This document shows positions 8,733 through 10,519 of a stretch of DNA of 47,727 bases, piece after piece. The notes under the pieces are model-generated. The model did not search any database, was not told the DNA's origin, and was given only the letters and a program-made list of their open reading frames with translations. This DNA comes from Perkinsus olseni (lineage: Eukaryota). Numbering within the stretch: the first letter of the stretch is position 1; every line of letters starts with the position of its first letter. Where the stretch lies: assembly GCA_013115125.1 (NCBI GenBank), contig JABANN010000245.1, positions 1 through 47,727 of the forward strand, read 5' to 3'. A program made the translations under genes and the position numbers.

Positions 8733-9803
8733 TAGCATGCATTTTTATGATAAACTGTACAGCTTGTGTTCAAAATTAACCGTGAAGATAGTCTTCTGTG
8801 AGTGCGTGTCCTGTTTTTACGAGTGAGCTGGATGGGGATAAGCAACAACGAGCATTTATAGCAGTACTCAGCGTCGTTCAGGCCAGCAATGTAGGAGCTT
8901 CTACTTCACTCGAGGACTGAGTTGAATCTTCGAAATACGATTTCAGACTATGAAAATAGTGGCGCTGGAATCTAGTGATCACCAGTTTCCTCTCATTTCG
9001 CAGTTGCCCACGGAACGCGATAGAAGAAGCCGTATTGGGGAAAGGTGGAGAACTATCTGGAAGTGTGGCTCACCTGCCCTCCGAGGTCTGTCTCACGCTG
9101 CAAGGGGCGAATTGCTGTGCCGTCATTAAAATTTATAGAGCATTGCTCCGAGAGCAAATATTGTTCATATTGCTTATAGGCTATGAGTGTTCGTCCCTAC
9201 TAACCTCGCTCGGCTGAGGATCAATCTGATGAGCCGAACTGTACCTGGATGTGGGAGGTTTAAACACCGCGTTTGACAAACGCTGTCCGGACTCGGTCAA
9301 GATTACGAGGAAGGTCTTCCACCATAAAGCGTGCTGAACCGACTTCGTCAAGTTCAATCACCATTATCGGTTTTCTGCTACTGGTGATTCACACTCTTGT
9401 TGTGCAACGCAACCTTGCCTCCCAAGAAGATAAGTTATCAGATCTTATCGTCTGATATGATACGGCAAAACGCTACCTCAACCTCGAAATATTGATGTTG
9501 TATTACGCTACCCCGCCAGAAAGGGGAGCCCTAAAGCGACGGGCAGACTTCGCTGTCCGCGTTAGATCCCCCTCCGGGAGGAGTGTTCTCAGGAGAAAGA
9601 AGTGAATCTAATAAGCAAAACGTCATGTAAGAGCAGGCCCATGATGACGATACATAGTTCGAACAACGCCATTGACTACAGTATAGTAGACATCTTTCGA
9701 ATCATCTTTCTCGAAGTACTGCAGATCTGTGTCTCTTGGGTGGAAATAGATACCACACCTCTTACGACAGCCGACCAACCATGCTCGATAAAGGGGCTTT
9801 TGC

Positions 9804-9825
9804 GTACTCACTGAGTACTACTCAG
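9804..9825. other. 22-bp scar, inferred target gtactcag
   Basis: gtactca-c-tgagta-c-tactcag. Confidence 0.9.
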
Positions 9826-10006
9826 CATCTGGTACCTCTTGGTCTGCAGGTTGTAAAAATATAATGCACCCGGGGCTGGCATTCTGACTGACCGATATAC
9901 ACCAAAATCACCCTGCCTTCAATTTACATGGAGCCGGATGCGCATAAAGGCAAGAGGCAATTTCGGGTCTTCTGTCATTTCGGCGTAGACATAAGAATCC
10001 AACGAC

Positions 10007-10028
10007 GTCTGAGGCTCAGACTCTGAGC
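10007..10028. other. 22-bp scar, inferred target gtctgagc
   Basis: gtctgag-g-ctcaga-c-tctgagc. Confidence 0.9.
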
Positions 10029-10519
10029 CTTGTAGACGGGACCACCATCTGCAGCGAACAGCACGGTAGAAAGAACCAAGAGCGGGTAGATGATGTAGCA
10101 GGTTCACATACGGGAGCTTCTGTTGCAGAAAAGAGAACTACACAGAATGGTGAGAAATTCAGTCTTATAACGTGTTAGATTGGTGCACTATATAGCTATT
10201 TGACGCGGGAGTCAAAGAAAGGCAAAATTGGGCTCGAGGGGAGCTGAGGAACCATGTGGCCTACAGCTTACTAAGCTCAGCTCAGTGTGGCACTTATACT
10301 CAGGAAGCAACACCAGTGGAAGCGTATTCGGAGAGATATAGCAAATGGTAACCGACTCAGCTACAAGCTTATCGATTGGCTGTACAGGTTAAAGGGATAG
10401 CAAGGCGCAGCAGCAGTGCCTAATGCATGCATAGTATAACGGGATTGAACCCACGGCCATCACCATGAAAATCCATACACCTGCGTCAAACATCCGTTAG
10501 GATCTTTAAAGATCCATAG

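Follow-up and report, generated by a model that had tools for sequence, protein, structure and literature searches.

A locus on the minus strand (10109-9623) of the 47,727-nt window, the whole stretch of DNA that was analyzed, contains two 22-bp blocks that separate three reading frames, and it raises the question of what left these blocks and whether they interrupted a gene. The initial annotation had taken them for +14-bp transposon scars in a former secreted-protein gene. The best overall explanation, with a probability of about 0.75, is that the 22-bp blocks are footprints of a hairpin-leaving cut-and-paste transposon that makes 8-bp duplications (hAT/MULE-type), and that the DNA in which they lie is possibly a decayed orphan ORF.

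Both blocks, hereafter termed scars, fit on the plus strand the form W[1-7]+revcomp(W)+W[2-8], where W is an 8-mer. Scar 1 (10007-10028) reads GTCTGAG+GCTCAGAC+TCTGAGC with W=GTCTGAGC, and scar 2 (9804-9825) reads GTACTCA+CTGAGTAC+TACTCAG with W=GTACTCAG. Coordinates, structure and plus-strand 8-mers are exactly those first described. A scar occupies 22 bp where a single W would occupy 8 bp, which amounts to a net gain of 14 bp at each of the two sites. No element sequence remains inside them. Scars and transposable elements are given here without strand.

The putative ORF consists of three pieces on the minus strand. Piece A (10029-10109) begins with an ATG (10109-10107) that is followed by a TGA (10106-10104) and then by a hydrophobic, signal-like stretch. 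Piece B (9826-10006) lies between the scars, and piece C (9623-9803) is an open frame that ends at the TGA at 9625-9623. The minus strand was translated in three frames to check the peptides. It encodes TCYIIYPLLVLSTVLFAADGGPVYK(A), (QT)SLDSYVYAEMTEDPKLPLAFMR and STQKPLYRAWLVGCRKRC as had been claimed, and the TGA at codon 2 is there as well. Collapsing the scars, that is removing 14 bp from each, links the three frames exactly, and the linked pieces comprise 152 codon positions, two of which are in-frame TGA. A frame break that had additionally been placed near 9920 is absent, since 10006-9826 stays in one frame, in which a single TGA (9921-9919) occurs. Likewise, the middle peptide given earlier, FWCISVSQNASPGALYFYNLQTKRYQML, is a chimera of two frames, with FWCISVSQNASPG in one and ALYFYNLQTKRYQML in another; it goes back to one base skipped near 9880 in the earlier reading. 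The frame arithmetic is right, and it is simpler and cleaner than originally proposed.

TGA was also considered as a sense codon. This was rejected, as TGA ends eight of ten checked ORFs; one of these belongs to the neighboring gene, and the database model of this gene terminates at the same residue. The neighboring ORF (11364-11873, minus strand) is intact, spans 169 codons and begins in a signal-like manner. Database searches with it returned its own model (157 aa) and a protein of 88% identity labeled Perkinsus olseni by NCBI. It has no Pfam family and no relative in the PDB.

The initial annotation expected an intact homolog or paralog to align across the collapsed junctions. None was found when the pieces were compared with protein collections and with the window. 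The queries were the unaltered pieces A, B and C, with the TGA of piece B given as X. Word-index searches among longer proteins returned no match for piece C or piece B. An exhaustive HMMER search of piece C against 1.84 billion representatives gave two hits only, neither of them a true one; these two long tandem-repeat proteins owe their scores to the summing of repeats and were judged spurious. In Pfam, no family was found for any of the three pieces at E-values up to 10, and the best score in Atlas was 0.83 (recognition 2029), which is below the useful range. Within the window, tblastn, blastn and tblastx returned self-matches only. The 88% identical protein found for the neighboring gene indicates that a related annotated genome is represented in the database, from which no match to the ORF was obtained. 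The "turnover of this gene family" postulated for the locus is unsupported, as the searches run detected no family.

Structure prediction was applied to piece C. AlphaFold, run on the single sequence, predicted four strands at a pLDDT of 62.6, and an antisense control frame of the same DNA reached 70.9. As the control exceeds piece C, the predicted fold is uninformative. Foldseek found no match for piece C in the PDB at E ≤0.001.

That the putative ORF was once coding is given a little less than even odds. Its stop codons tell little. On the minus strand, the path dictated by the scars contains two internal stops, and the other two paths with 14-bp shifts contain three each. Piece A is open in each of its three frames, and the junction at scar 1 therefore carries no stop-based information. 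Among 28,144 frames of 151 codons from the gene-poor part of the window, 8.4% contain at most two stops, and one or more of the six frames do so at 39.6% of 4,681 positions. By its stop codons alone, the linked frame is hardly more than chance.

There is an even chance that the stretch was never coding. It would then be a spacer between two convergently oriented genes that tolerates transposon visits, and its linked frames would have arisen by chance in DNA of 50% G+C. The high proportion of gene-poor positions with such a frame, the three open frames of piece A and the lack of homologs all agree with a non-coding spacer. So do the higher pLDDT of the antisense control frame and the position of the scars, as no Pfam-supported ORF in the window has a scar inside it. 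Against a spacer stands the hydrophobic 15-aa stretch that piece A encodes after its ATG (mean Kyte-Doolittle hydropathy 2.31). An equally hydrophobic 15-mer follows 9 of 989 ATGs (~0.9%), where an ATG was counted if the 28 codons behind it contain no more than one stop, and codon 2 of the putative ORF is itself TGA. Codon log-likelihoods, for which 2,790 codons from long ORFs of the window served as training set, also argue against a spacer, as the proposed frame is the best of six for piece A (5.8) and for piece B (2.1); for piece C it scores 0.1, versus 5.5 and 3.2 in two other frames. After collapse, moreover, a frame with at most two stops exists on both strands (divided 56/93 on the minus and 94/8/90 on the plus strand). 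Genes in this window typically share this property, which is found at 70.7% of 1,510 positions in five long ORFs versus 6.3% of 4,681 gene-poor positions. Taken together, both-strand openness after collapse, the rare hydrophobic N-terminus and the codon bias in pieces A and B modestly favor a coding past.

A former secreted-protein gene, as first claimed, is plausible, though at slightly less than even odds. It is suggested by the hydrophobic N-terminus, by codon bias in two of the three pieces and by the open frames on both strands; the weak stop statistics and the absence of any homolog or paralog in the searches count against it. The full reading of the initial annotation goes further and describes a functional secreted-protein gene of a family, which was frameshifted by two transposon visits, such visits driving the turnover of the family. 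This is unlikely. It would account for the exact frame arithmetic, for a hydrophobic N-terminus that few ATGs of the window equal and for both strands being open after collapse, and the secreted-like neighboring gene lies 1.25 kb upstream in the same orientation. However, no family member was found in the searches run, and the ORF matches nothing although its neighbor has a named homolog at 88% identity. The stop statistics are weak, and the two extra TGA codons may have arisen before or after the scars. With two TGA codons beside two unmutated scars, the frame, if ever coding, may have been dead already before the element visits. Alternatively, the scars may have killed it.

The scars themselves do not depend on the coding history of the ORF. 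The exact 22-bp form occurs at 11 sites in the window, starting at 297, 1915, 7535, 9804, 10007, 10520, 11012, 11034, 17673, 19878 and 46445, as compared to none in 20 shuffles. With up to one mismatch allowed, 14 sites were found versus none in the shuffles. The form was scanned with unit lengths from 5 to 11 and with 0 to 2 bases lost per inner end. The only enriched combination is a unit of 8 with one base lost at each inner end (11 versus 0), and all other unit lengths and losses tested are at shuffle level. All 11 exact scars therefore keep both copies of the duplication, each minus the base that adjoined the element (W[1-7]...W[2-8]); forms with all 8 bases kept or with 2 lost have no match in the window. 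Their cores all run from the complement of w8 to that of w1.

A looser scan required w1-7, the complement of w8, a gap, the complement of w1 and w2-8. Of its 119 matches, 15 have a gap of 6 nt, at a shuffle mean of 89.8 for all gaps together and a chance expectation of ~0.7 per gap class (47,727/65,536 by our own arithmetic). Among these 15, the match at 14849 has an unrelated core, and those at 142, 2372 and 12829 are scars with one core mismatch. Single-mismatch 22-mers start at 142, 2372, 2958, 3990 and 29299. Overall, the window contains 11 exact and 6 near-exact scars, and the preponderance of exact over one-mismatch copies (11:6) suggests that most recognizable scars are young. A class of short footprints does not rise above chance in the window. 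One 16-mer of the classical short footprint shape (w1-7, complement of w8, complement of w1, w2-8) was observed at 10877-10892, and a single such match is the chance level.

The scars are clustered. A segment of 1,252 bp (9804-11055) holds five of the 11 exact copies (simulated P=0.001), and ten of the 11 are found in the first 19.9 kb (simulated P=0.001). The two scars of the putative ORF belong to this hot spot of five scars in 1.25 kb, which appears to lie between the 3' end of the neighboring gene and an apparent coiled-coil gene on the other strand. A further canonical scar of the cluster is located at 10520-10541 (W=CACAAGAC). At 11012-11055, two canonical scars abut each other (W=GCGGTTGG and TATAAGTC); the two W are neighboring 8-mers, and virtually the same target has been used repeatedly. 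On collapse, the open frame that spans the scar became longer at 1915, 7535, 9804 and 11034. It did not at the other scars, where 10520 and 11012 gained only four codons each. The scar at 7535 sits in low-complexity sequence.

Two variant footprints were found in addition. The first (36692-36776; W=TTGATTCT) begins with a near-perfect palindrome of 75 bp, whose 37-nt arms are 97% complementary and whose 1-nt center is the complement of w8. After the palindrome come CA, then the complement of w1, and finally w2-w8; the part behind the CA matches the adjoining 8-mer at seven of eight positions. This footprint can be read as a long-hairpin variant of the 22-bp form, and the excision model outlined below fits it. 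The second variant (15645-15687) is a canonical scar (W=TTTGTAGT) with a 21-bp internal insert that repeats part of the scar. The insert may stem from a second event or from templated fill-in, and this variant fits a hairpin excision model as well.

The scars are probably transposon excision footprints. The anatomy of the scars by itself suggests an insertion followed by an excision, and the 22-bp form could arise as follows. Upon insertion, the element would duplicate the 8-mer W. Upon excision, the transposase would nick one base into each flank and seal each flank as a hairpin. This would place the complement of w8 behind w1-w7 at the flank tip on one side, with the mirror image on the other. 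If host nucleases opened both hairpins at least 8 nt from the tip, the two resulting 3' tails would be complementary only over the inverted 8-nt duplication and would anneal there. Trimming of the flaps and filling of the gaps would invariably yield W[1-7]+revcomp(W)+W[2-8], in which 22 bp replace 8 (+14 bp). The initial description of the scars as +14-bp remnants of visit-and-leave transposition is thus well supported by their anatomy and number, by the variant footprints and by a resident element with an 8-bp duplication (see below). The ORF, which had been put forward as internal evidence for it, does not serve as such.

Excision footprints of this kind are already known, and a single fixed 22-bp product at such a density is a variant of them. 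Palindromic additions are also found at V(D)J coding joints, where P nucleotides arise from the off-center opening of a hairpin-sealed end. P nucleotides are short and variable, whereas the scars carry a fixed 8-nt inverted copy that is set by the target duplication.

The available sections of PMC5873905 describe the footprints of Ac/Ds (hAT) as palindromes centered on the complement of the element-adjoining base; the hairpin model of Coen et al. 1986 is cited there. In yeast, the arms of these palindromes reach up to 20 nt, and microhomology is used in 88-89% of the footprints (PMC5873905). The scars resemble Ac/Ds footprints in that the 8-bp duplication is kept on both sides and in their palindromic additions centered on the complement of the adjoining base. 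Such palindromic filler, as defined in the sections of that account, is present in all 11 exact scars and in the long variant at 36692-36776. The excision model given above is also similar to that for Ac/Ds in yeast, with hairpin opening away from the tip and joining guided by microhomology (PMC5873905). Unlike the scars, Ac/Ds footprints are heterogeneous, with 28 types among 128 events in Candida, mostly of at most 3 nt, according to the same sections. Here, in contrast, a single product prevails, which contains the 8-nt inverted duplication in full and is represented by 11 exact and 6 near-exact copies.

Muta1, a Mutator-like element from Aedes aegypti, makes 8-9-bp duplications and cleaves with flank hairpins, as described in the available part of PMC5499845. 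Its excision in yeast is more than 90% precise (PMC5499845), unlike the excisions considered here, which left scars. Because Ac/Ds footprints are heterogeneous and Muta1 excision is mostly precise, a single uniform product is unusual for both. In the limited literature searched, no account was found of a uniform 22-bp footprint built as W[1-7]+revcomp(W)+W[2-8].

A non-autonomous cut-and-paste element resides in the window at 12260-13610 including its flanks. The element proper (12268-13602) is 1335 bp long and is flanked at either end by the 8-bp target duplication GGATTCTC. Its terminal inverted repeats of 51 nt are 92% complementary, and it carries arrays of ~15-nt subterminal repeats. The scar hot spot is 2.2 kb away. 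The genome thus contains an element family with matching 8-bp duplications, and this family may have made the scars. A near-canonical scar with one core mismatch is located at 12829-12850 inside the element, and the element itself was therefore visited.

Candidate superfamilies for the element are hAT, MULE and Merlin. Its start, GGGTGTATCCC, resembles the imperfect palindromic terminal motif of Muta1, GGGTCTACCC, and both elements have subterminal repeats, which form arrays in Muta1 (available part of PMC5499845). For the Merlin superfamily, the available sections of PMC8101967 give 8-9-bp duplications and inverted repeats of 24-462 bp that start with 5'-GG; Merlin-related sequences are listed there for three of eight Perkinsidae genomes. 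The 8-bp duplication of the resident element is within the Merlin range. However, its left end starts with GGG and its right end with CGG, that is with CG rather than GG, and both inverted repeats start with 5'-GG in Merlin. Furthermore, the available sections of the Merlin account (PMC8101967) contain no sign of flank hairpin formation. A DDE_Tnp_IS1595 domain was not detected in the ORFs of the window. Transposase families of Pfam, MULE transposase included, were found in none of 12 ORFs and in none of the 67 ORFs of at least 100 aa in the window.

Break repair and template switching can produce local inverted duplications. That the 22-mers are templated insertions from break repair or from replication template switching (snap-back synthesis) instead of transposon footprints is in keeping with such processes and with scars that contain no element sequence, yet it is very improbable in view of the invariant 7+8+7 geometry, the complemented edge bases in 11 of 11 scars, the absence of enrichment for any other length, the element with an 8-bp duplication in the same window and the clustering of five scars within about 2.5 kb of this element.

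For footprints of a hairpin-forming transposon, the fixed 22-bp product tentatively suggests that the breaks are almost always repaired by annealing at the inverted 8-bp target duplication and that each visit leaves a countable +14 signature. If so, at the density of about one per 4 kb seen in this window, the scars would be a major genome-wide source of frameshifting indels. Transposon traffic could then also be read from them, and so could the unnoticed destruction of small orphan genes like the proposed ORF. Should the 22-bp form be the standard product throughout the genome, a simple search for the exact pattern would suffice to count the transposon visits of the past. Many 14-bp frameshifts would be explained, and annotators could recognize pseudogenes broken by scars. 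Such a standard product would, moreover, point to an unusual, near-deterministic microhomology repair of hairpin ends.

Further features of the window were recorded along with the scars. Two GST-like ORFs (19860-20357 and 22171-22698) have a stretch of 181 nt in common at 94% identity, and the second has a GST_N match. The scar at 19878 lies ~135 bp upstream of the ATG of the first GST-like copy. The upstream regions of the two paralogs do not align and therefore provide no internal empty-site control for this scar. The window also contains two tRNA-Thr genes at 29512-29587 and 36315-36388, with the anticodons AGT and TGT. Stretches of 32 nt that resemble a T-arm are found at 19523-19554 and 44762-44793, and neither ARAGORN nor Rfam calls a tRNA there. 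Trinucleotide runs of CAG and CAA are located at 25294-25365 and 47658-47720, respectively, the first of them within an ORF similar to Na+/H+ exchangers.
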